DNA of 64,000 nucleotides. Origin: Eledone cirrhosa (taxonomy: Eukaryota). Location of the stretch: NCBI GenBank assembly GCA_964016885.1, contig OZ024749.1, positions 1,426,001-1,490,000 on the forward strand. Reading direction: 5' to 3'. Within the stretch, counting starts at the first letter, position 1. Every line of letters begins with the position of its first letter. Below the pieces are notes generated by a model. It saw only the letters and a list, made by a program, of their open reading frames with translations, did not search any database and was not told where the DNA came from. Shown one piece after another: positions 17,368-64,000 of this stretch. The position numbers were made by a program, and so were the translations under genes.

Positions 17368-18296
17368 TGGCTGATGGCTAAAAAGTTCACAGGCTGACCA
17401 AGATACTCTCATGGAATGTGACCAAATGAGGTTTATTTTTCAACATAGTCCCCCTTGTAGTCTCCACACTTCTTCCATCAGTGTTGCAGTGCTGGGATCT
17501 CATTGGTGAAGAAGCTTTCATCCTGGTGGTCAAAAAAGTCGTCAATAGCAGATATGACATCATCACGGTGATACCGGTTCCCAGCCAAGTGGTTTTTCAT
17601 GTTGGGGAACAAATGATAGTCAGATGGGGCCAAATCAGGAGAATAGGGAGAGTGATCAACCAATTCAAAGCCACAGTTACACACAGCAGCCATTGAAACC
17701 AAGGAGTTGTGTTCTGGAGCATTGTCCTCATGAAACAAGACCCCTTTCATCAGTTTTCCTGTGTGTTTTGTCTTGATAGTCCTCGTAACTGCCTCAGCAG
17801 ATGGGGTGGCCCTTTTGAAGATAGTCAATAAACACAATGCCTTTTGCATCCCCCAAAAAACTGAGACCAGAACATTCTCAACTCTTTCAAGAGAGATGTT
17901 AATAGCATTGGCTATTTGGTTTATAGTCAATTCCCTGTCACTCATCACCATTTGGTGAACATGATCAATATTTTCCTTGGTGCTGGCAATTGCAGGACAT
18001 CCAGACCGTGGGTCATCTTTAAAACTCTTCCTCCTAAATTCAGTTGCCCATCTTTGCACTGTTGATAAAGCTGGAGTGTAAAGCTCTAATGTAACAATGG
18101 ATGTCTTTGGGGACTAAACCCTTTTTCTGCAGGTACTTGATAACCCCACAATGTCTTCTCTGAACAGTCAAATGTCAGTTTACCTGGAAAGAAACAATGC
18201 AGATATTAATAGGAAGAATTGAAATTAATGCATGCAAGATTTCACAGCTCTAGCATCACTTCATAGGCAGCATATGAACTTTTCAAGCTACCCTTG
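17368..18296 (-). mobile_element. Mariner element, internally deleted
   Basis: DDPRSGCP, HEDNAPEH and YSPDLAPSDYHLF motifs. Degenerate TIRs (AAAAGTTCA) with TA flanks. Confidence 0.9.
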
Positions 18297-50114: not shown

Positions 50115-52434
50115 TCAAGTTCTTTCAACAATTAATTTTAACTGGTTCAATCCTATAGAAGAGTGAAGTAGTTGTTTCCTCATGGCATCAGAGAAGTCAT
50201 TTGAACACAGCCACAACACATTAAGACTACTACACTCCATCATCATCTTCTGTAATAAGGGACCACTCGCATCCCCTATAACGTTGCCACTTAGGTCAAG
50301 GTGTTCCAAGCGACCCGTGTCAATTATAGCTTGCAAGATGTGTTCTACCTGCTTGTCTCCGATTCTGTTCTGACATAAGACAAGTTCTGTCAGCAGAGGA
50401 AGGTTAAGGATCATCTGTTTGATTTTTTCGCAGGCTGCGTCATCAACTGCGACTTTAAATGCTGTAGAACGAATATCGATGCAGCTGAAGTTACGCAGTG
50501 GTGACAAAAGACTGAGGTTTAACTTACGAAGACCCTCACAAGCTAACAGTTCTTCTAGAAGACGGTTCACAGAAGTGACACTTATTACGCAGTTACTCAC
50601 CGAAAATGTTGAAAAGTTCTTGCCGTGCTTGATTTTGCCCACGAGATTCTCTGTGGCGCTTTCCAAGTCACACCTGGCTAGCTCAACTTTCTCAAAGATA
50701 TGAGGAAACACATTGATAATGTACGCCAAGCGATGGCGATTGTGGATGTTGTCTATGCAGAGCATTCGCAAGGCTATGTCGCTCGTAAAAACTGACCGCA
50801 CCTTTTTGTACATAATCGGTGTGAAATTGCCAGCCCTGTTCATCTCTCCACAAAATGACAAAGTTCGTATATACTTATTCTTTTTAAAAATTTCACATAC
50901 AATGTCGACAATGTACTGACTGTTAAACACACTTTCACAATGTATAAGTAAAGTGGTCAGATTTTCTAGTCGGTTTATAGCATGTGCCAGGGATATACAC
51001 AAGAAATATTGGTCCTCCATGCCATCTAAATGAAGTGTGATACCACGGATTCTTAATCGACAGAGCCTTGCAAGGCGACAGAAATTTTCAAGAACTTGAG
51101 ATGGACATCGCTGAATATGAAACTCTAAGACATCTGGGAAATGTTCTACAATACAGTTCATAAGAGAAGAAGGAAAATATATCTGACTAAGGCACTCTAA
51201 ACACAAGTCATAGTCATGCACATTGCCTCTCATTATTTTATCACAAATCCCAATACCTACACACTTTTTCTGACTCATGTTTGCCATGACATCGAGTAAA
51301 CAACGGACTCCATCCTCATCATAGCAAGACATGAGGGAACCAGTTAAGACAACCCAAAGGAAGCCCATTTCCCTACTCAACACCCACTCTAACAGATTAT
51401 CCCTCTCGTATCTGTCGGTGTGTTCTGCAATGTAAACAGACACAAAATATTCTTGAAAGTTTGTACTTGGAAACATGTAATATGCAGTGGAATTTTGCAA
51501 AGGAAGAAGATTGGCTTCGACAAAGAAACCAAGATGAGTGTTAGGGAGCTGCCAAAAATGGGGATCTATTTCTTTAGGACTGCAAAACGATCTCTCTGAT
51601 TTCCACATTTTAACAGATAATGTAGACAATTTCTTCAGAACAACAGATATCAAATGTCTTTCGGGAAGAATTTGGAATTTGGTATAGTACCTAGTTAGAG
51701 CACATTGCATAAGTTCTCTGTACAGATGATAAATACTATTAGTCTTTGGTTTAGCATGGTTGTCTATAATAAGCCATGCTAGCAGAACTAGTGTGTAGAC
51801 GTTCCGGAGGATTCTAGTCAGCACCAAATCTTTCCGTACCTTCTGAATCAAAAGTGACACCTCGAGTGCAGAGAAGTCCGACAGCAGCATTTCTTGGAGG
51901 AACACAAAACTACAATGGAACTGAAGTCCGACATTAAGAAACATTTGATCACAGAGTTGACGATTGGCAAATCTTGGACGGCAAGATATTAGCAGCTGGG
52001 CCTCAGGTAAACAAAGAGAACTGAGAATACCACGAAGGTCTTCTTTACCAGAATCATTTACATAGTCAAAATTATCAAGAATAACGAGTACATTGTTTTG
52101 GATGGAGACCAACCAATCAGATATATCCTTACAATTGCATTTCTTGTCTTGGATCAATGGATCAAACAAAATGCTCACCAACGAAACCAACCGCTCTCTC
52201 GCCTCAGACGGTTTTATGTCCGACAATGTTGTCACTTGGAGACAGTCTACATAAATAACTACGGTGAACTTATTCACATAAAAGGGAGATGACATCATTG
52301 TCTTGGTGGACCAATCATAGAGTAATTTCCAGCAGAGCAATCGTTGCTCATGGACATCACTCTCGACTAGAGTAATCTGGGTGACACTGTGTTGAATTGG
52401 TGAGAAGAGATCATAGATAGGTACTTCATGGCAC
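50115..52434 (-). CDS. Terminal exon of a NACHT-LRR (NLR-like) gene, about 772 aa, with degenerate ATPase motifs; upstream exons not located
   Basis: Uninterrupted 2.3-kb ORF with acceptor TTTTGTTTCAG|G (phase 2). NACHT landmarks in order: LCWKLLYDW, FTVVIYVDC, VLVILDNFD, LLISCRP, FLNVGL, RNVYTLVLLAW, LYRELM and winged-helix YMFPSTNFQEYF. RI-type LRRs: LTELVLCQNRIGD, LEHLDLSGNVIGD and LNVLWLCSNDFSD. Confidence 0.85.
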
Positions 52435-53317
52435 CTGAAACAAAACATAGAATAACATTAAAACATTTGTGTAGGAGAGAGAAAGAAATAAGGTAAAAAC
52501 AATAAAATTCTAATTCTCCCAGCAAAAAGTGAAAGAATTGGTTAATTCTACAACTTGGTTCAACAATAAAATTATCTAACCATAATTTCAGCCCTATCAA
52601 TAGAAACAATAAATATATATATTTAAGTTTGGTAGTTCACCACTGGATAGAACTGGTCATTCCATATGGTTAACCATGATGTAATAGGAAAAGCACTTGA
52701 CGTTATGTAACTCATCCATCTTTGATGTTGAATCCTGTTGGTTGTGCAGGAATGGAGTTAATTATTATTGAATAAAATGACAGGAGGCCAAACTCGTGAA
52801 ATTCCTTCAAAGTTTTATTTCTGCAGACACTATATATATTCCAGTGGCCAGATTATGTAGGTGGTCAGTCAAAATTTTTTTCTCTGCTTTCTCTCCTTGT
52901 AACCTCTAGGATTGTGTTTACCATTATTCCTTTATTGTGTAACTATTATGCATTATACACCTGATGAAATAACCTGACCACTGAAATGTACATAGTGTTT
53001 ACAGAAATAAAACTTGGAAGGAATTTCACCAGCCCGGCCTCCTGTCATTTTATTCAATCAATTAGCTTCATACCGATGTATAATAACACTCACACACACA
53101 CACACATATATAGCTCTATATAGAAAACTTTATTTTCCATTTCAGATAGACGTGCTCCATCATTCACTTTTCTATAAAAGTATAATATACACAAAACGCC
53201 AGCATCAACAGTTTTCCAAGAGATGGCAACATGAAAGGACCTGCTATTTTTATCTAAAAACTTTTTTTCCCGATTTTGCCCTGTCCATCCCTTCAATCTT
53301 TCTAATTTCTCATTCTT

Positions 53318-53353
53318 TCTTCTGATGAAGGACTAGTGTCCGAAACGTTAAGA
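53318..53353 (+). ncRNA. Minimal type I hammerhead ribozyme motif (Penelope-like element remnant)
   Basis: TCTT-CTGATGA-A-GGAC(TAGT)GTCC-GAAA-CGTT-AAGA: stem I TCTT/AAGA, 4-bp stem II, palindromic AACGTT stem III and a GUU cleavage triplet. Confidence 0.7.
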
Positions 53354-53474
53354 CACTATTCCTGCTATTTCAAGCATTAAACTAATATATTCCTGACATA
53401 TTCTGTACCATTTGTGTTGTTATTTCTGTTTACCTTTTACAAACATATATATACATATATATATACATATACAT

Positions 53475-55380
53475 GCAGTATGTTAGAGAAAATTGTGATG
53501 TCATTGGTGAGAATTGTGTCCAAGATGATAAAGGTACACTTGCCCTGACAGGTGCTGAGAAGAAAGAAGCATGGACGAGCCATTATGAAAGATTACTGAA
53601 TGAGGAGAATGCATGGGAGAAAGAGACCCTACCCCAAGTGGACCCTATAGAGGGCCCAGCAATACAAGTCAGCAGCAGTGGAGTAAGTAAGGCAATTAAA
53701 GATATGAAGACGGAAAGGCAACTGGTCCATTAGGAATAGTTCTGAGATGCTGACAGCATCTGGGTTGGTAGGTTACACCATAACCACACGTATTGTTAAC
53801 CAGGTAATACTAGAGGGTCTCATACCAAAGGATTGGTGCAGCAGCATCATTGTCAACTGCTACAAAGGTAAAGGAGATGCATAAAGCTGATGGACCAGAT
53901 CATGAAAGTAACAGAAAGAGTTATAGCACAGTTGATTAGGGACATGGTAAATCTGGATGAGATACAGTTTGGATTTGTACCAGGCAAAAGGCACCTCTGA
54001 TGCTCTCTTACCAGGCAAAAGGCACCTCTGATACTCTCTTCCTTGTGAGGCAGTTACAGGAAAAGTATGTAGCTGAAAGTAAGCTGCTCTACATGGCATT
54101 TGTTGATCTGGAGAAAGCTTTTGACAGAGTGCCCCGTGCTATAATCTGGTGGGCTCTTAGAAAACTAGGAGTAGATGAATGGCTTGTGAAGGCTGTACAA
54201 GTCATGTATAGGGGAGGAATCAGCAATGTTAGGGTTAGTAATGACTATAGTGAGGAATTTAGCATACAGGTCGGTGTCCACCAGGGCTCCGTCCTTAGTC
54301 CTCTCCTGTTTACAGACTATAACTGAGGAGTTTAAGACTGGCCTCCCATGGGAACTCCTGTACGTGGATGATGATGGTGGAACTAGAGAAGAAATTTTAA
54401 CATGGAAGCAGGGCCTAGAAAGATGGGATTTTAAAGTCAACCTGACAAAGACTAAGGTCCTAGTAGGTAGAAGAGAAAACAGAACCCTGATCCCTCCTTG
54501 CTCAGTATGTAGGAAAGGGATAGATAGAAATTCCATCCTCTGCCCCAAATATAAACTATGGGCACACAAGAGATGTAGGCTATACATGTAGCAGCTGTAC
54601 TGGGACAAGAAGCAGCAAACGGCCACAAGCGCTATCAAATTCTGGAAAGGCTTGGTAGAAACAGTAGACAGCTTCTGCTACCTGGGTGACCAAATTAGCA
54701 GTGGAGGTGTGTTCTGAAAGTACAGTAGGCAGAATAAGAACAGGATGGAAGAAGTTCAGGGAGCTACTACCACTGCTAGCTACAAAAGGCTTTTCCCTCA
54801 AAATGAAAGGCAGACTGTATGATGCATGCATATGAACAGAAATGTTGCATGGTAAGGTCTGGGTGCTGTGTGCAGGAGACTTGTGTAGATTGGAAAGAAA
54901 TGAAGCTTGCATGCTCCAATGAATGTGTAATAGTAATATATGTGAACCACAAAGCATAAACTGAGAGAAAAACTAGGTATAAGAGGAATCAGATTAAGTG
55001 TGCAGGAGAGGAGATAGCGTTGGTATGGACATGTGATGTGTATGAAGGATGACAGCTGTATAAAAAGGTGCAGAGTGCTCAAAGTTGGTGGAATCTGAGG
55101 AGTGGGGAGACCCAGGAAGACTTGGGAGGAGGTGATAAAAGCTGACCTTGCCCAATTGCACTTCTTTAAGGCAATGACACAGGGCCAATATCTGTGGTGT
55201 TGAGCAGTAATACAGAAGACCCGACTTTGTACGGGGACAGGCCGAAGCTGAAGCATATATACAGTATTCCCCACCCACTCACATGCATCCCCCATGAAGA
55301 CAGACTAAAGTATACATCCAGTGGAGCATCCAGTCCACACAGTAAAGTGGTCATGTAGGTGTAATTCCAGCCATGGAGAG
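53475..55380 (+). mobile_element. RTE LINE, 5'-truncated and decayed
   Basis: Collinear with 13290-15200 (AFVDLEKAFDRV, GVHQGSVLSP, Cys-rich region, C-terminus). Confidence 0.9.
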
Positions 55381-55974
55381 CTTGCCAAGCAAACAAACAA
55401 AGGGTCAGCAGGACCCTTCTGTCATGTCAAGTCATGACAACTTCCCTAGTGTTGGTGATCTACCATGATAAACACACACAGCACCCGCTGTAAAGTGGTT
55501 GGTGATAGGAAGGGCATCATCATAAAATCTTGCCAAACAAAGGGTTGGAAGGACCCTCAGTTGTGTCAAAGACGACAAGCTCTCCTCAACACTCAATGGA
55601 ATGTGAGACCATACATAAGTGAAACACAGATCCCTGGCTTGCTTGGGAGATCAGTGGCTCTGCTTCAGTATGGAATAAGTGTATGTAGGTAGACCTGTCC
55701 AACCCTTGATAGCAGGGATAGCTAATGTTAAAATGACAATGATCATGATGATATGCATATATGTGGGTATATATAATATATCTGTTATGGGCAAATCCTT
55801 TTGCAGTGGTGGTAGTAGCTCCCGGAACTTCTTTCCATCAGGAATCAACCATTATTTTAGACCTTCATACCAGTCCGTTCTTGCAACACCTATCTTTTCT
55901 CTTTATAGTAGTTGATGAGAATATAACTGCACCAGTTTTGGTGGATTGTGCTTTCTCAGACTATCTAATTAGCT

Positions 55975-56135
55975 GTCGGACGCCATGCTTTCCGGCATAG
56001 TTACGTCCCTTTATGATATGAGTTCAAATCCCGCCGAGGTTGACTTTGCCTTTCATCCTTATGGGGTCAATAAAATAAAGTACCAGTAATGCACTGGGGT
56101 AATTGCTGGCCTTGTGCCAAAAAGTAGAAACAATT
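55975..56135 (+). mobile_element. SINE family A, 5'-truncated
   Basis: B-box and core as in the 2858 copy. Confidence 0.85.
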
Positions 56136-57346
56136 ATATACATATATATATCATTGTTTAACATCCATCTTCCACACACGTCTGTTCTTCCACGCTAGCA
56201 TGGGTTAGATGGGTTGTCCTGTTGTGGGCAGTGTCCGGTCGGCTGACCTTGTCTTGCTCTATATATATATATATATATATATAAAGAGTTGTCTTTTTTC
56301 TGTCACACACTTCTTTGAAGGTGGCAAATTGGGATTAAAGAACTGGACTTGGTGGACTATTATGAATAAGCAACGAGATACATTGTCGGTGAGTTCGGTT
56401 GGAGTCTCATTTAAAAGTCTCACGTTTTGTAGTCAGAAGTTACACCTGAGATAAAATTGTTAGTACCCCTGCATCGTAGAAAATATAACCAGTGTAAAGG
56501 GTTATAAAAAATACCAGACTAAATACTGAGAGTTCAAATACTAAAACCCATCAGTCACAGCCTAAAGACTGAAACCAATGAATATTCATTACCTAAACTA
56601 GTTTATATATAACTAGTTATATGGTTGAGAATAGTTACACGATATCCCAGTGTGTTATAAGAAGCGACTTAAAGGCTTGGTGTCAGGTAGAGAATCCGGG
56701 TGTAAAACATTGCTGAAGTAAAAACTGATATCATGATATATATATATATCATCATCATCGTTTAACGTCCATGTTCCACGCTTGCATGGGTTTGGACGGG
56801 AGTTTTCCCACTTGAGGCAAGAGTGGTTGTCTTGCTCGCATAGGACTGTCTGGCGGGTTTTCTACAGCTGCATATATATGCACAAGTATAGACATATATA
56901 TGAGGGTGTCCGAAACTGCAGTAGGGACACTGAGTAAATCGATGAATATTTCTTTAACATATTTATGTTTCCCAAATTAATTTTTATATATATATATTAA
57001 TTTATATTAACTGAGGTGGAGTCAGGCAGTTATTACTTATATATTCGTAAAAAGTCAGAATAACTCAGGGCAAATTAAAATAGAGAAAATACAAATCTTG
57101 AGAAAAAACAAAATAAATCGTGGACTTGTTTAGAAAAGTTCTCCAGATGTAATATTTTCACAAGCAGGTTTCATAAGAAACTAAAGAATAGCTGAAAGTA
57201 ACTAATCCATACAGGTTTATATGAGGTAACATTGACCTACTTGAAACACAGTGTCAAATTGGGAACAAACTTATTTGTATTTTGCAGGTGAATCAAATAA
57301 CTATCATTATTGCACCTTAGTGGGCGGTGGATTGTTGCACCTTAGA

Positions 57347-57730
57347 GGGCGGTGGATTGGCAGTATCGGTAGAGGGTCGGACGCCATGCTTTCCAGCATA
57401 GTTACGTCTCTTTACGATCTGAGTTCAAATCCCGCCGAGGTTAACTTTGCTTTTCATCCTTACGGGGGTTGATAAAATAAAGTACCAGTAATGTACTGGG
57501 GTAATTGCTGGCCTTGTGCCTAAAGTAGAAACAATTATTGCACCTTAGTAGTTTGCTAGTATCGCTAGAGTGTCAGACACCATGCTTTGCAGCATAGAGT
57601 TATGGCCCTTTATGTTCTGAGTTCAAATCTAGCCGAGGTTAGCTTTGCCTTTCATCCTTACGGGGTCGATAGAATAAACCACCAGTAATGTACTGGGGTA
57701 ATTGCTGGCCTTGTGCCAAAAGTAGAAATA
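57347..57730 (+). mobile_element. Two tandem SINE family A copies
   Basis: The first copy is flanked by repeats of TTGCACCTTAG. A second, more diverged copy follows. Confidence 0.85.
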
Positions 57731-58127
57731 CTATTCTACCTTTAACCCTTTCGTTGTATGTATGGGGTCATAGGGGCAGTGTTGTGACATATAGACAGGA
57801 AACTGCTTGTGGGGTCGTCACAGTGGACACTGTTGTGAGATGTATGCACATGTAACTCCTTGTGGGGTCGTAGAGGAGCTGTTGTGGCATACAGCATTTC
57901 TTTTTTAAAAACCCAGAGGAGCCCATCTCCTGCCAAGGTCTGAAGACACCCTATCTTCCAAAGCAGGAGTGAGAAAGAAATATAAAAGAAGAATAAAACT
58001 TCAGTACTAGACTGGTGCTTTTTTTTATCAACCTCGAAAGGATGAAAAGCAAGGTTGACCTAGTTGGAATTTGAATTCAAGGCACAGAAAGCTGCAACAA
58101 ATGCTACAAAGCTATAAAGCTACATTG

Positions 58128-58915
58128 TCTATGTCATTAACCCTTTCATTACCATATATCTAATGAAAGACACTATGTCATTAACCCTTACATTACCATA
58201 TTTCTAATGAAAGACAGTCTATGTCATTAACTCTTTCATTACCATATTTCTAATGAAAGACACTGTCTATTTCATTAACCCTTTCCTTACCATATTTCTA
58301 ATGAAAGACACTGTCTACGTCATTAACCCCTTCATTACCATATTTCTAATGAAAGACACTATGTCATTAACCCTTCCATTACCATATTTCTAATGAAAGA
58401 CCCTGTCTATGTCATTAACCCTTCCATTACCATATTTCTAATGTAAGACACTGTCTATGTCATTAATCCTTTCATTACCATATTTCTAATGAAAGACACT
58501 GTCTATGTCATTAACCCTTTCATTACCATATTTCTAATGAAAGACACTGTCTATGTCATTAACCCTTTCATTACCATATATCTAATGAAAGACACTGTCT
58601 ATGTCATTAACCCTTTCATTACCATATTTCTAATGTAAGACACTGTCTATGTCATTAATCCTTTCATTACCATATTTCTAATGTAAGACACTGTCTATGT
58701 CATTAACCCTTTCATTACCATATTTCTAATGAAAGACACTGTCTATGTCATTAACCCTTTCATTACCATATATCTAATGAAAGACACTGTCTATGTCATT
58801 AACCCTTTCATTACCATATATCTAATGTAAGATACTGTCTATGTCATTAACCCTTTCATTACCATATTTCTAATGAAAGACACTATGTCAATATCCCTTT
58901 CATAACCATATTTCA
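58128..58915. repeat. 48/44-bp minisatellite (about 16 copies) derived from a TTAACCCTTT MITE terminus
   Basis: Unit TAACCCTTTCATTACCATATTTCTAATGAAAGACACTGTCTATGTCAT. Single copies lie at about 9558, 18568 and 28646. Confidence 0.92.
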
Positions 58916-59554
58916 AATGAAATACATTGCCTAGCATTTTAAATTAACTGCCCCAGCCCCCAAAAATTGTTTGTCATACATATGTTAGAAACAATTATTA
59001 TTATTATTGAGGGTGGTGGATTGGTAGAGTTGTTAGAGCATCAGACAAATGCTGAGCAGTATTTGTCCCACCTTTTTATGAGCAAAGTTCAAATCCTGCT
59101 GAGGTCAATAAAATAAAGTACCAGTCATGTACTAGGGTCTGTTTAATCACCTCTGCCCTTCCCCAAATTTATTAGCCTTGCATCTAAATTAGAAATCAAT
59201 ATTACTGTCTTTTTAAAAGGGTTGGGGATTGACAGTGTCGGTAGACACTGTGCTGTGTGGCATAGTTATGTCCTCTAAGTTCAAATCCTTCTGAAGTTAG
59301 CTTTGCCTTTCATCCTTATGTGGTTGATAAGGCACCGGGGTTGATTTAATAGACTTTCCCTTTCCCCTGTTGACCTTGTGCCTAAATCAGAAACTCTCAT
59401 TATGGAATAGGTAGCCTATATCCCTACGTGTTATAGGAGCAAACTAAATGGGGTGCCACCAAGAAAGGCATCAGGTTATGAAATGTATGATGAATATGAT
59501 TAAACCTACGTGGTTAACCCTCCCTTTAGCAGTGAAACCTTTCCTATTCATCAT

Positions 59555-59897
59555 TCATCATCATCATTTCATTTTACGTCTGCTTTTTCCCTGCTTGCAA
59601 GGGTGGGACAGGAACTGATTCTGGCTTGATTTCTACAGCTGGATGCCCTTCCTAACACCAACCTCATTTACAGTGAGTGCTGGATGCTTTTTTTCCATGG
59701 CACCTCCACAACCACTTTGCAGTGGAATGATATGGACCCCAGTCCCTATCATCTCATTTTTACAGCTGAGTAAACTGGAGCAATGTGAAATAAAGTGTCT
59801 AGTTCAAGGAAACAACACATCAACCGGTCTGAGAATTGAACTCACAACCTTTCGATTGCAAGGCCAATGCTCTAACCACTAAGCCATGTGTCTCCAT
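59555..59897 (-). mobile_element. SINE family B
   Basis: Reverse complement of the 33908 element with a (CAT)n tail. Confidence 0.85.
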
Positions 59898-60205
59898 TTG
59901 CCTCCTATTGTTTTTTTTTTATGTTTTCAATGAATATGGCCTTTAAAACTGTTGGGAATTGGTAAAAATTCATTACATAATGAAGTTATGAAACAAAAAT
60001 TATTCTAAACGACACTTAAAACATTTTAAATATCAAAATATAAAAACTTTATAAATATATTCTCCACTCATGACAATTTCTAAACCACACTATCTAAACA
60101 ATGTATTGATTATCTGCCTTGGTTTATAAATGGGGTCAGGAGTTTTGCCTATTTCTCAGACATAAAATAAGGGTCTGTTTATGTTTGACTATATCTGGTA
60201 ATTTA

Positions 60206-61939
60206 CACCGTGTAACATATTTTTTGTTCCCCGGTTCTAAGTGTCATTGCCTGGTTTGTTATATCCCATTATTATTTAAAAAAACACTATTATTTAATCA
60301 GAAGTTTGGGTTTGTGTTCAGGAGTTTGATATTTCGAAATTTTCATATTTTTCAAGAAAAAACATTTTTTTAAAATTTATCAGTTCATATAATTAAATCA
60401 ACAGAGTATATATTTATTTTATTACACAAGCGTATCAAAAGCAAACAAGTAAAAACAAATAACACTTATAAAGCAACTTATACACGTCAGAAATGACTGG
60501 ATTTCCTATATTTACGGTTGTAGTCCAGGTCGTATTCCCGCACTAGCCCCCAGATATAGTCCCCCATCATTTTTTCATTGTAGTGGCCCTGGTACCTCCG
60601 CTCTATCTCTTTCACATTGTGGTGGAATCGTTCGCCTTGTTCTTCTGAGTAGGCGCCCATATTGTCCTTGAATTTTTCCAGGTGAGCGTCCAGCATATGG
60701 AGTTTAAGCGACATCCTGCATCACATGCGCCAAAAGCCTTTATCAGATCCTGCACCAGTTGCTGGTAGTTTTCAGCTCTGTAGTTGCTCAGGAAGCCCTT
60801 AACAACTGCCTTGAAACAGTTCCATGTTGTTCTCTCAATCCTATTGAGCTTATTGGAGAACTCGGTAGACTCAAACACCTTCTTTATCTGAGGTCCAACA
60901 AAAATTCCACCTTTGATTTTGGCCTCAGATAACTTGGGGAAGAACTCAAGAAGGTACTTAAAAATGGCTGATTCTTGGTTGAGAGCCTTCCCAAACTTCT
61001 TCATCAACCCCAACTTAATGTGCAGTGGCGGCATGAGCACAATCCTGGGATCAACCAGTGGCTCCCACATGACGTTCCGGGTCCCAACTACAAATTCTGT
61101 TCGCTGCTCCCAGTTCTTTATTTTGTAGTGGTCAGAGGTGGCTCTGCTGTCCCAAAGGCAGAGGAAGCATTGGATAAAGCCTCCTTGGAGTCCAAGCAGA
61201 AAAGCCACCATTTTGAAGTCTCCAATGATTTCCCAATTGTACTGGTTGTATTGCAGAGCTTCCAAGAGGACTTTCACACTGTAGTAATCTTCCTTCAGGC
61301 AGACTGAATGAGCTGCGGGCAGTGTTGGTAACTTGTTTCCATTGTGGAGGAGGACAGCCTTCAAACTTGTGGTGGAGCTGTCTATAAATAGCCGCCACTC
61401 CTTGGGCACAAACTGCACCCCAATAACGTCAAACAGTCCAGGCACGTCATGGCATAAGTAGAGGCCATCCCTAAGAGTGTAAAAGCCTGAGAAAGGTTTG
61501 TGTTGACTTCTCTGACTTGTCACCTGCACTTCCTCCTTGACCAAGTTCCACTGCTTCATCCTGGAGACGAATGCTTAAAACACAACTTACCCTTTTTTCA
61601 GGGTGCAAAAATCCAGTATCAAAAATCTCTTTAATCCACTTTTTAACAATTTTATACTTTATTGCACTTTTATAATTTTCTTTAGGTATTACTCTTTATT
61701 TTATAATTTTAATTTAACCTGAAACATATATTAAAAAAATCATTTAACATAAGCAAATTAAACTTACATACAACGTAAAATCCAGCATACAAATAATTTA
61801 GTGAATCGCTTAGAATTTTTACAAACCCCAACTTTTAACTGTTTAATAGCACTTTTTAAAAAATTTATTTGGGACCTAAGCAACACAAAAAAAGTGATTA
61901 CAAGCCAGGAACAGAGAAAAATTTTTTTTTGTTACAGTG
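60206..61939 (-). mobile_element. Chapaev3-like (CMC) DNA transposon, internally deleted and frameshifted
   Basis: Transposase motifs WRLFIDSS..SLKAVLLHNGN, GDFKMVAFLLGLQGG, PPLHIKLGLMK and SEEQGERFH. Imperfect TIRs (CACCGTGTAACA...TGTTACAGTG) with TTA on both flanks (60203-60205, 61940-61942). Confidence 0.8.
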
Positions 61940-62232
61940 TTATCGACAATATTATCTCCAAGAAATCACATCTACTAATATCACTCTTTTTTGGTACCTC
62001 AACTTATCTACAAAACTCTGACATTAAATCTCAGTTTATATTTATCTAACAAAGTTATTTTTTTACCCCCCCCCCCTCCCTCATGCTACACGTGTTATTG
62101 AAATTTTGTAAGTTCAAATAACTTTGATAAAGAAGTAATAGCTGTGGTGTGAGTATTACATTCAACATATCGTTATCTTTCTAGTTCAGATATATTTGGA
62201 ACTCTTCCAATGCACTTGTTTAAACTGACCCC

Positions 62233-62620
62233 TTGGCAGTATCGGTAGAGGGTCGGACGCCATGCTTTCCAGCATAGTTACGTCCCTTTATGATATGAGT
62301 TCAAATCCCGCCGAGGTTAACTTTGCCTTTCATCCTTACGGGGTCGATAAAATAAAGTACCAGTAATGCACTGGGATAATTGCTGGCCTTGTGCCTAAAG
62401 TAGAAACAATTATTATTATTGGCAGAGGGCGGTGTATTGGCAGTATCGGTAGAGGGTTGGACGCCGTGCTTTCCAGCAAAGAGTTACGCCCCTTTATGGA
62501 CTGAGTTCAAATCCCACCAAGGTTAACTTTGCCTTTCATCCTTACGGGGTCGATAAAATAAAGTACCAGTAATGTACTGGGGTAATTGCTGGCCTTGTGC
62601 CAAAAAGTAGAAACAAATAT
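62233..62620 (+). mobile_element. Two tandem SINE family A copies
   Basis: Head-to-tail copies at about 62233-62420 and 62427-62620. Confidence 0.88.
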
Positions 62621-62802
62621 TATTGGTGTGATCAAACGTTTTGCTCGCTCCCGTAAGTCTCCTTATTTACCTGTCGTAAATCATTTATTGTTCATTTGTG
62701 TTGTCGTGTAAGGGACATAAGGCCTTGGACTTTGCTCTGTGAAGGGGAAAGTATAATGGACTTTATTTAAAATATAATAAAAAAAAAAAAAAAATTAAAA
62801 AA

Positions 62803-64000
62803 ATGGCGGAGCCACGCCCCCAAATTCGGCTGACAACGGTTTAAACGTTGAGGCGAATAACGCTGCCCCTCCCACAACAAATATGAAAACCAGCATCCCA
62901 CTAGGCAGTATCGCCGACAGCAGCACCAACGACAACAACAAGGACAACAACAATGACATCAACAGCACCAACGCAAACAACAAGAACACTTTTGCTGCAG
63001 CAGCAGCCTGAGAGAGGCCATGCTTCAGCATGAACCTCTCAAACAAAGATGAAAAGTTGGCCCAGGTCTGGAAGCTCATCAAGCAAGAGTGAACCTGGGC
63101 CAACTTAACTGCACCGGTAGAAGCTACTGAAGCAGTGGAGCGCAGAACGGTGCATTACAGGTGCATCTCAGCAGAAACCAAGAGAGCAGCTTTAATTGCA
63201 CAAGCAGATGTTGAAGTCGCGCTGAGGTGCATCAGGGATGACACTGAATACATAGCGAGGGGCAGACAGTACGGCACCATTTTGGTGCTGTTTAAGTCAG
63301 AAGCCCTCGCTATGAAACATGCTATGACACCTTGCAAAACCAGCAAGGTCATAATGTACCCCTCCCACATGGGAAAAAGAACAGCTCATCTCCACATTCC
63401 CAGGATCCCACCAGGACTTGACATGTGGTGGCTTCTGGGATGTGTGATTGTGGAGGTGACACATCTCAGAAGCCACCACATGTGATAGAAGTTACAAGGA
63501 CTGCTAGAAAGGACTAGTCCGGGGTTGACTTGGAAATACTTCTCCAGATCAGGATAGAGAATATAAACACAATCCCAGACCACATCCGTCTTCAAAACAG
63601 GACGGTAATTCACATTATGACTGAGGGTAAAGGCTGCATTGTTTCGTTTGCAGAGAAAAAACCCATTTGCGAGCCTTCTGCCCTCAACTACTGAAAGATG
63701 CAAGGGGTCGAAGGGCTCCACTGCTCCCGACACCGGGGCGAGAACCACCACCAACACCAGCATCGGCAAAACCACCAGCAACAACACCAATAGAAACACC
63801 ACCACCAACATTAACCACCCAGGGGGGAAACGAGGAAAGTTGCCGAATCCCCCCCCCCCCCCCAAAATACACATCAATAAAAACTTAAACACACACAGAC
63901 CCCCTCATTTTCCAGTAGTGAAGATGAGGCAAAACCCAAATCGCAAAAAATACAAAAATGAAAACAGAAAAAGAAAAAAACTCCACAAAGCACAATAAAA
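62803..64000 (+). mobile_element. Decayed gag-like ORF1 of a non-LTR retrotransposon (L1/Tx1-like), running off the window end
   Basis: CX2CX4HX4C zinc knuckle CFVCREKTHLRAFC at 63640-63681, preceded by an ORF1-like region with stops and frameshifts. Confidence 0.65.

Follow-up and report, generated by a model that had tools for sequence, protein, structure and literature searches.

The gene described here encodes an NLR-type protein of the octopus Eledone cirrhosa in which the P-loop has been replaced, and it is very probably a selected, transcribed pseudo-ATPase NLR. It lies on the minus strand of a 64,000 nt stretch of contig OZ024749.1 (the window). Its domains and fold class the protein with the NLRs; it is not a tripartite NLR and, judged by its motifs, it is not an active STAND ATPase.

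There is a run of 772 open codons followed by a stop at 50115-52433 on the minus strand, and the chance of an open frame of this length, estimated from the base composition, is approximately 5e-22. The sequence-only reading took this frame to be an intact gene. The frame is indeed open, but the gene has three exons, which together encode 860 aa, and the frame covers just the last of them; two further coding exons lie upstream beyond the window. The orthologous proteins are 860-863 aa long, with an N-terminus that extends about 90 residues beyond the 772-codon frame; the missing part lies in these two exons. Exon 3, the terminal coding exon (50115..52434, minus strand, 2320 nt), contains the NBD, HD1, WHD, HD2, about 12 LRR strands and the stop codon, and there is a canonical acceptor directly before its start at 52434. 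Intron 2 (17,288 nt) runs on the minus strand from 52435 to 64000 and on past the window end. Exon 2 (205 nt; G000:C9:1495723-1495927, minus strand) is 17 kb upstream of exon 3, and the ATG-bearing coding segment of exon 1 (58 nt; G000:C9:1553987-1554044, minus strand) is 75 kb upstream of exon 3, with intron 1 (58,059 nt, minus strand) between them; all three features lie outside the window. Both introns are GT-AG and the joined exons give 860 aa with no internal stops. The 3' UTR occupies 49978..50114 (minus strand) as far as the spliced contig goes.

This contig (2928 nt, run X2) is free of intron sequence; it spans exon 3 and exon 2 and reaches exon 1, and at both junctions its loose ends agree with the adjacent exons. 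It comes from one run of one study; contigs from the other three public runs extend into the intron. Because run X2 has zero cover across the unique flanks of the gene and only one copy of the gene was found in the genome, we read the contig as a spliced transcript, and for the same two reasons a retrocopy is unlikely to be its origin. A search for sequencing runs that carry the gene listed none of RNA, a blank that has no bearing on expression. The protein encoded by exon 3 is 94% identical to that of O. vulgaris (in a cluster with O. sinensis and O. bimaculoides), 86% identical to that of Argonauta and 78% identical to another cluster. In the latter, 93 contigs of at most 3.7 kb give one full-length protein, which suggests that the record consists of many cDNA assemblies.

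Intron 2 contains LINE fragments and a transposase-like one. There is a 320-codon transposase-like frame at 60487-61574 (minus strand) that is continued in another frame. The ESM Atlas puts it with arthropod clusters at 0.96; weaker matches to RAG1 RNase H clusters, at 0.88-0.90, hint at a Transib/RAG1-like element, and no convincing terminal inverted repeats were found for it. LINE reverse-transcriptase fragments are present at 36826-37863 (RVT_1, E 7e-19), 48160-48726 and 53386-54972, and a helix-turn-helix transposase-like fragment at 17478-18113. Minisatellite arrays with periods of 21-52 lie at 1-2486, 24662-25760, 31130-32278, 42788-46773, 47163-47848 and 58122-58933, and strong local GC skews in the window coincide with the long arrays. 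Transposon-like frames reach at most 345 codons in the window and 1062 in the flanks, which makes the contrast originally drawn between the NLR frame and the broken frames of neighbouring transposons a weak one. About 108 kb upstream of the gene, on the opposite strand, there is a 1240-codon acidic coiled-coil exon (L022:1685-5404; G000:C9:1661685-1665404, plus strand), for which no Pfam family scored above cut-off.

The nucleotide site is altered at four motifs, all on the minus strand and all where the sequence-only reading had placed them. The replaced Walker A motif, VESDVHEQRLLC, is at 52332..52367, three bases from the earlier estimate; both glycines are gone, GKT has become EQR and one residue is deleted. 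The Walker B motif VLVILDNFDY (52062..52091) retains the first Asp and the Asp at +3, while Gly is replaced by Asn and the Glu is lost, so that LDNFDY has neither the small residue nor the Glu of the extended pattern hhhhD[GAS]hDE. The HD1 motif RNVY (51795..51806) has lost the adenine-contacting Pro, with NVY in place of the NPL found in gastropods, and the WHD motif MFPSTNFQEY (51447..51476) has FPS in place of FxH, the His being lost across the mollusc clade. Sensor 1, LLISCRP (51975..51995, minus strand), keeps the Arg of STAND/NACHT ATPases, which is absent from the gastropod orthologues. The claim that the nucleotide-binding motifs have been lost therefore stands for Walker A, NPL, FxH and the Walker B Glu, but not for the two Walker B aspartates or the sensor-1 Arg. 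There is no GK[S/T] anywhere in the 860 aa spliced protein or in 5/5 orthologues checked; this rules out a P-loop contributed by an upstream exon, and the canonical GxxxxGK[ST] that might have been supplied elsewhere in the protein is absent.

In NLRs, Walker A contacts the phosphates and the HD1 Pro contacts adenine, and the WHD His helps in nucleotide coordination (PMC7583971; PMC2323615). Because all three are missing, the ADP/ATP switch is likely gone. Motifs and predicted structure together suggest that the octopus protein has likely lost the usual binding of ATP or ADP, and we infer that it is a nucleotide-independent NLR that would have no nucleotide switch. The premise from which nucleotide independence was first argued, that NLR oligomerization needs the Walker A lysine, is not universal, since P-loop mutants of NLRP1b and NLRC4 are published exceptions (PMC7583971, PMC3478704).

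Pfam NACHT (PF05729) matches the protein with 30.5 bits against a cut-off of 26.7, at profile positions 33-143 only, and the Walker A part is unmatched because the match begins at position 33. Our own canonical NACHT profile gives 105 bits. Pfam LRR matches to the protein from the window are weak and under cut-off. A ribonuclease-inhibitor-like LRR region is located at 50118..51137 (minus strand), and nowhere is the protein more conserved than in the first five of these repeats. The LRR region also holds the family signature loops G-x2-N-x3-N and H-R-x2-Y-x5-P (50703..50852, minus strand), which are common to the cephalopod clade, the gastropods and the basal members. The orthologue proteins have no Pfam match to CARD, Death or PYD.

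The predicted structure agrees with the NACHT fold that had been proposed from the order of the motifs. The AlphaFold2 model of the O. bimaculoides orthologue has a pLDDT of 83.6 and a pTM of 0.77 (39 sequences); the structure models were built on 34-39 sequences and are read as secondary structure and fold matches. The best Foldseek matches of this model are NOD2, NLRP14, NLRC4 and NLRP3 (E approximately 1e-22), and VIA-align superposes its residues 25-862 on PYD-deleted NLRP3 (7vtp) with a Z of 27.4 and an rmsd of 5.8 over 699 residues. This suggests that the full NLR fold, NBD-HD1-WHD-HD2 followed by C-terminal LRRs, has been kept. Because the superposition covers residues 25-862 there is no space for a head domain; the 860 aa spliced protein has about 20 residues ahead of the stretch aligning to PYD-deleted NLRP3, and the prediction is that the octopus protein is a naturally headless NLR. 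In the O. bimaculoides model a loop of one residue separates strand 1, whose last residue is 115, from helix 1, which starts at 117. The Haliotis orthologue, modelled by the same procedure, has a five-residue loop, with the helix starting at the lysine, and helix 1 is predicted to start three residues earlier in the cephalopod than in the abalone orthologue. Given a loop of one residue against five, the cephalopod protein would have an extra helical turn, which is predicted to fill the phosphate-binding place.

A search of 1.84 billion representatives gave full-length relatives at 23-31% identity. Named relatives are Haliotis XP_071085098, Patella XP_050417790, Babylonia XP_076435888, Littorina XP_070213285 and Batillaria KAK7480581, and the gastropod orthologues are annotated as uncharacterized or NACHT-domain proteins. 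Two profile searches of a large protein set, which were crowded by repeats, added Batillaria only and missed known members. In whole-core trees the family forms one clade (support 100/99, or 99/98 once P0219 is added). In the basal members, P0031 and P0219, GKT and NPL are still present, as are the WHD His and the Walker B Glu; P0219 (1567 aa) has an acidic N-terminus of about 600 residues and its loop reads A-x4-GKT. Above them is a 12-row mollusc clade, supported at 100/99 in the whole-core tree and weakly (89/71), with a long-branch warning, in the NACHT-only tree; we take the branching within it to follow mollusc phylogeny broadly.

The WHD His and the last-position Walker B Glu are absent from 18/18 mollusc-clade rows aligned. 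The named gastropods keep GxxxxGKT and NPL (8/8 rows, and Littorina) and lack the sensor-1 Arg. GK[S/T] is absent from 7/7 cephalopod-clade rows aligned (Octopus, Argonauta and two further, 77-94% identical), and all seven have lost both P-loop glycines, the Lys, the Thr, one residue and the HD1 Pro, with the Arg kept. As a control, GK[S/T] is kept in 22/22 canonical rows, and three rows dropped from the table carry it too. Two of the seven cephalopod-clade rows are placed by the tree as sister to the octopods, and our guess is that they come from squid or cuttlefish. P0024 starts after the loop and was left out of P-loop scoring. In P0027 (1215 aa), from the gastropod clade, the P-loop region is replaced by low-complexity sequence, possibly a second and independent loss of the P-loop. 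Taken together, the data suggest an old and apparently single-copy mollusc lineage that has decayed in steps, from members with all motifs, through members that keep Walker A, to members that have lost the P-loop. The gastropod orthologues may bind nucleotide without hydrolysing it. Those scanned score under the Pfam NACHT cut-off and would be missed by domain-count surveys.

Selection was tested at the protein level; a metagenome scan for orthologous DNA gave 150 pattern matches, none of which was confirmed. When the exon was mutated neutrally to 94, 86 and 78% identity it remained free of stops in 5, 1 and 0 of 100 runs, respectively. Additionally, the observed substitutions are more conservative than neutral ones, with none of 200 simulations reaching the observed mean in 4/4 whole-exon and 4/4 NBD comparisons. 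For the LRRs, 4, 6, 0 and 0 of 200 simulations reached the observed value, and for HD1-WHD-HD2 68, 3, 0 and 0 did so, the first of these, against O. bimaculoides, not being significant. Both coding differences found in the public runs (2/2) are synonymous. Among five cephalopod-clade proteins the invariant columns number 136/160 in the first five LRRs, 48/58 in HD1, 19/24 in the replaced Walker A region and 108/182 in the distal LRRs. In the comparison with eight non-cephalopod members, too, conservation is highest in the first LRRs (0.33, compared with 0.16-0.24 in the NACHT parts), and G619, N622, N626, Y661 and P667 are identical in 10/10. At the protein level the orthologues are under purifying selection. 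Together with the predicted NACHT fold, the absence of GK[S/T] and the spliced contig, this supports the proposal of a protein of NLR fold that is under selection and has no usable P-loop. Conservation of the first LRRs is best read as unlike that of a pathogen sensor.

We see an even chance that the octopus protein is a static scaffold or inhibitor, free of nucleotide, whose binding partner is a conserved host protein. A P-loop-less NACHT-LRR protein with the full NLR fold, as predicted, and no effector domain would act as a fixed binding scaffold in place of an on/off switch. Its first LRRs and HD2 would hold the host protein and, in the absence of an effector domain, caspases and adaptors would not be recruited in the usual way. 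The protein itself would not carry out inflammasome-type signalling and its partner would be endogenous. An arms race with pathogens fits less well than a fixed contact with a host protein, given that the gene is single-copy and slow to change and that its proximal LRR surface is conserved. The working analogies are rice Pb1 and mammalian NLRP14, both of which work by attaching to host proteins and shielding them, although the octopus protein is a member of neither family: Pb1, which has no P-loop, binds OsWRKY45 and shields it from degradation (PMC3782705, PMC3478704), and in NLRP14 the LRR binds KDM2A and the NBD binds UHRF1, with an E3 ligase being blocked (PMC13237083). Several points count against a scaffold. 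The HD1-WHD-HD2 comparison with O. bimaculoides is not significant; the models were built from few sequences, and the spliced contig is from a single run; the searches for a partner could miss an intron-rich NLR, and there are at least 17 CARD matches in the genome; and the pocket may have been rebuilt, given the retained sensor-1 Arg and two Walker B aspartates and an EQR that does not vary within the clade.

In a rebuilt pocket the Walker B aspartates, the sensor-1 Arg and the new Arg would contact a nucleotide or some other phosphorylated ligand, and the protein would be a non-hydrolysing sensor. Across the cephalopod clade EQR, LDNFD and the sensor-1 Arg are conserved apart from a single D-to-N substitution in Argonauta, and the high proportion of invariant columns in the replaced Walker A region points the same way. 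CED-4 and NLRP1 bind ATP without hydrolysis (PMC7583971), but they do still bind it, and Walker A is deemed essential there in the same source. The octopus protein has lost the glycine-rich loop with its Lys and Thr as well as the WHD His and the HD1 Pro, and the extra helical turn is predicted to occupy the place of the loop. On balance we consider a rebuilt pocket unlikely.

The absence of an effector domain would mean that any signalling requires a partner, and the sequence-only reading had suggested a sensor, decoy or regulator of a partner NLR. On this view the protein would supply the sensor or decoy side of a paired NLR system, as in NAIP/NLRC4 or the plant RRS1/RPS4, signalling via a helper NLR. 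CARD-NACHT-LRR proteins are present in oyster and abalone (PMC11508797), and an 'NLRC3', known here by name and not by sequence, is listed for bobtail squid (PMC10844198). However, no second NACHT-LRR was found nearby: the canonical NACHT profile matches only the octopus gene among 8046 frames in 464 kb. Across the whole genome, three different NLR protein queries matched this gene only, at 24-28% identity, and because they reached it at that level, any canonical NLR whose NACHT exon is long ought to have been picked up. A genome search with Pfam NACHT gave two matches, this gene and an NWD1-like protein. These genome searches are lower bounds, with 1-122 candidates scored exon by exon, and an intron-rich NLR could escape them. 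Moreover, the gene is single-copy and its LRRs are conserved, not diversified. Within the reach of these searches the suggestion of a partner NLR is not supported, and we regard one half of an NLR pair as improbable.

The NWD1-like NACHT protein (L004:1114-3513; G000:C8:40.72 Mb) is encoded by a 1329-codon frame with an intact P-loop. In the genome NOD2_WH gave no matches among 12 candidates, and NPHP3_N gave two, the NWD1-like gene and another frame that, from its motifs, is presumably a PIF1/Helitron helicase. HEPN_DZIP3 gave none, but its control likewise matched nowhere, so that this blank carries no information. The CARD matches, at least 17 in number, mean that adaptors for death-fold signalling may exist in the genome. 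They include five matches within 140 kb at G000:C2:233.69-233.83 Mb and five on C17, and of the 17 CARD loci 12 were read, none of which has GxxxxGK[S/T] nearby (frames of at least 200 aa within 1.5 kb). For comparison, published counts give 45 NLRs for Pinctada and a single NLR for each of Lottia, Crassostrea and Aplysia (PMC3879445, PMC9334734).

Loss of an ADP lock could also leave the protein permanently open, so that it would self-assemble without nucleotide into a ring or lattice serving as a platform. In NLRC4 the WHD stabilizes the closed form, and NLRP1b with a mutated Walker A is constitutively active (PMC7583971); HD1 and the NBD core of the octopus protein are strongly conserved. 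There is, however, no head domain for such a platform to display, and the model is closer to closed NLRP3 (rmsd approximately 5-6) than to the active disk (rmsd 14.7), a weak argument given that models may lean towards the closed form. A platform of this kind seems quite improbable to us. Finally, a decaying pseudogene or relaxed selection, which the alterations to Walker A, the Walker B Glu, the HD1 Pro and the WHD His might suggest, is rejected as extremely improbable, since the frame is open where neutral simulation makes that unlikely, the clade is 77-94% identical, the transcript is spliced and substitutions are conservative even in the NBD.

The octopus protein resembles other animal NLRs (NLRP3, NOD2, NLRC4 and the invertebrate NLRC/NLRD) in its whole-length NBD-HD1-WHD-HD2-LRR fold, its Pfam NACHT match and its sensor-1 Arg. 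What sets it apart from them is that it lacks Walker A, the Glu of the extended Walker B, the WHD His and the HD1 Pro, and that it carries no effector at the N-terminus. Human NLRs are reported to have GKS or GKT and all to keep ATP-binding features, with a few lacking only the His or the Pro (PMC2323615). The gastropod orthologues belong to the same clade, are of near length, headless and carry the same LRR signatures, and they too have lost the WHD His and the Walker B Glu; unlike the octopus protein they keep GxxxxGKT and NPL and have lost the sensor-1 Arg. Paired sensor NLRs of the NAIP/NLRC4 or RRS1/RPS4 type have a linked helper NLR, whereas none was found in the 464 kb around the octopus gene. 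NLRP14, NLRP5, NLRP2 and NLRP7 use the NLR fold as a binding scaffold and are among the top fold matches of the octopus orthologue model. These reproductive NLRPs keep GKS or GKT and a PYD (PMC2323615), whereas the octopus protein has neither, and no orthology is implied.

Natural NLRs without a P-loop have been described in plants (PMC3782705, PMC3478704). Plant NLRs that lack or do not need the P-loop (rice Pb1, ADR1-L2 and degenerate Arabidopsis NLRs) are a parallel, in that the loop can disappear naturally from an NLR that still works. Pb1, however, is an NB-ARC protein with coiled-coil heads from a large plant family, in contrast with a headless, single-copy NACHT protein, and the losses are independent. 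In the literature searched, in which subscription journals are mostly uncovered, we found no account of a naturally P-loop-less animal NLR or of this family, and five LOC identifiers of the family were named in no paper found.

NLRs are treated as nucleotide-driven switches, and the mollusc family provides a natural series for testing the role of the nucleotide, with relatives that have the motifs, gastropod forms with the binding loop only and cephalopod forms without the loop. A wider reading, which we hold as doubtful but possible, is that coleoids gave up NLR inflammasome-type sensing and kept as their sole NACHT-LRR a headless, nucleotide-free pseudo-ATPase, an essential scaffold for a conserved host protein at the end of a stepwise mollusc decay from full motifs, through bind-only forms, to no P-loop. 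If this is the only NACHT-LRR in the octopus, it bears on how cephalopods sense intracellular infection.
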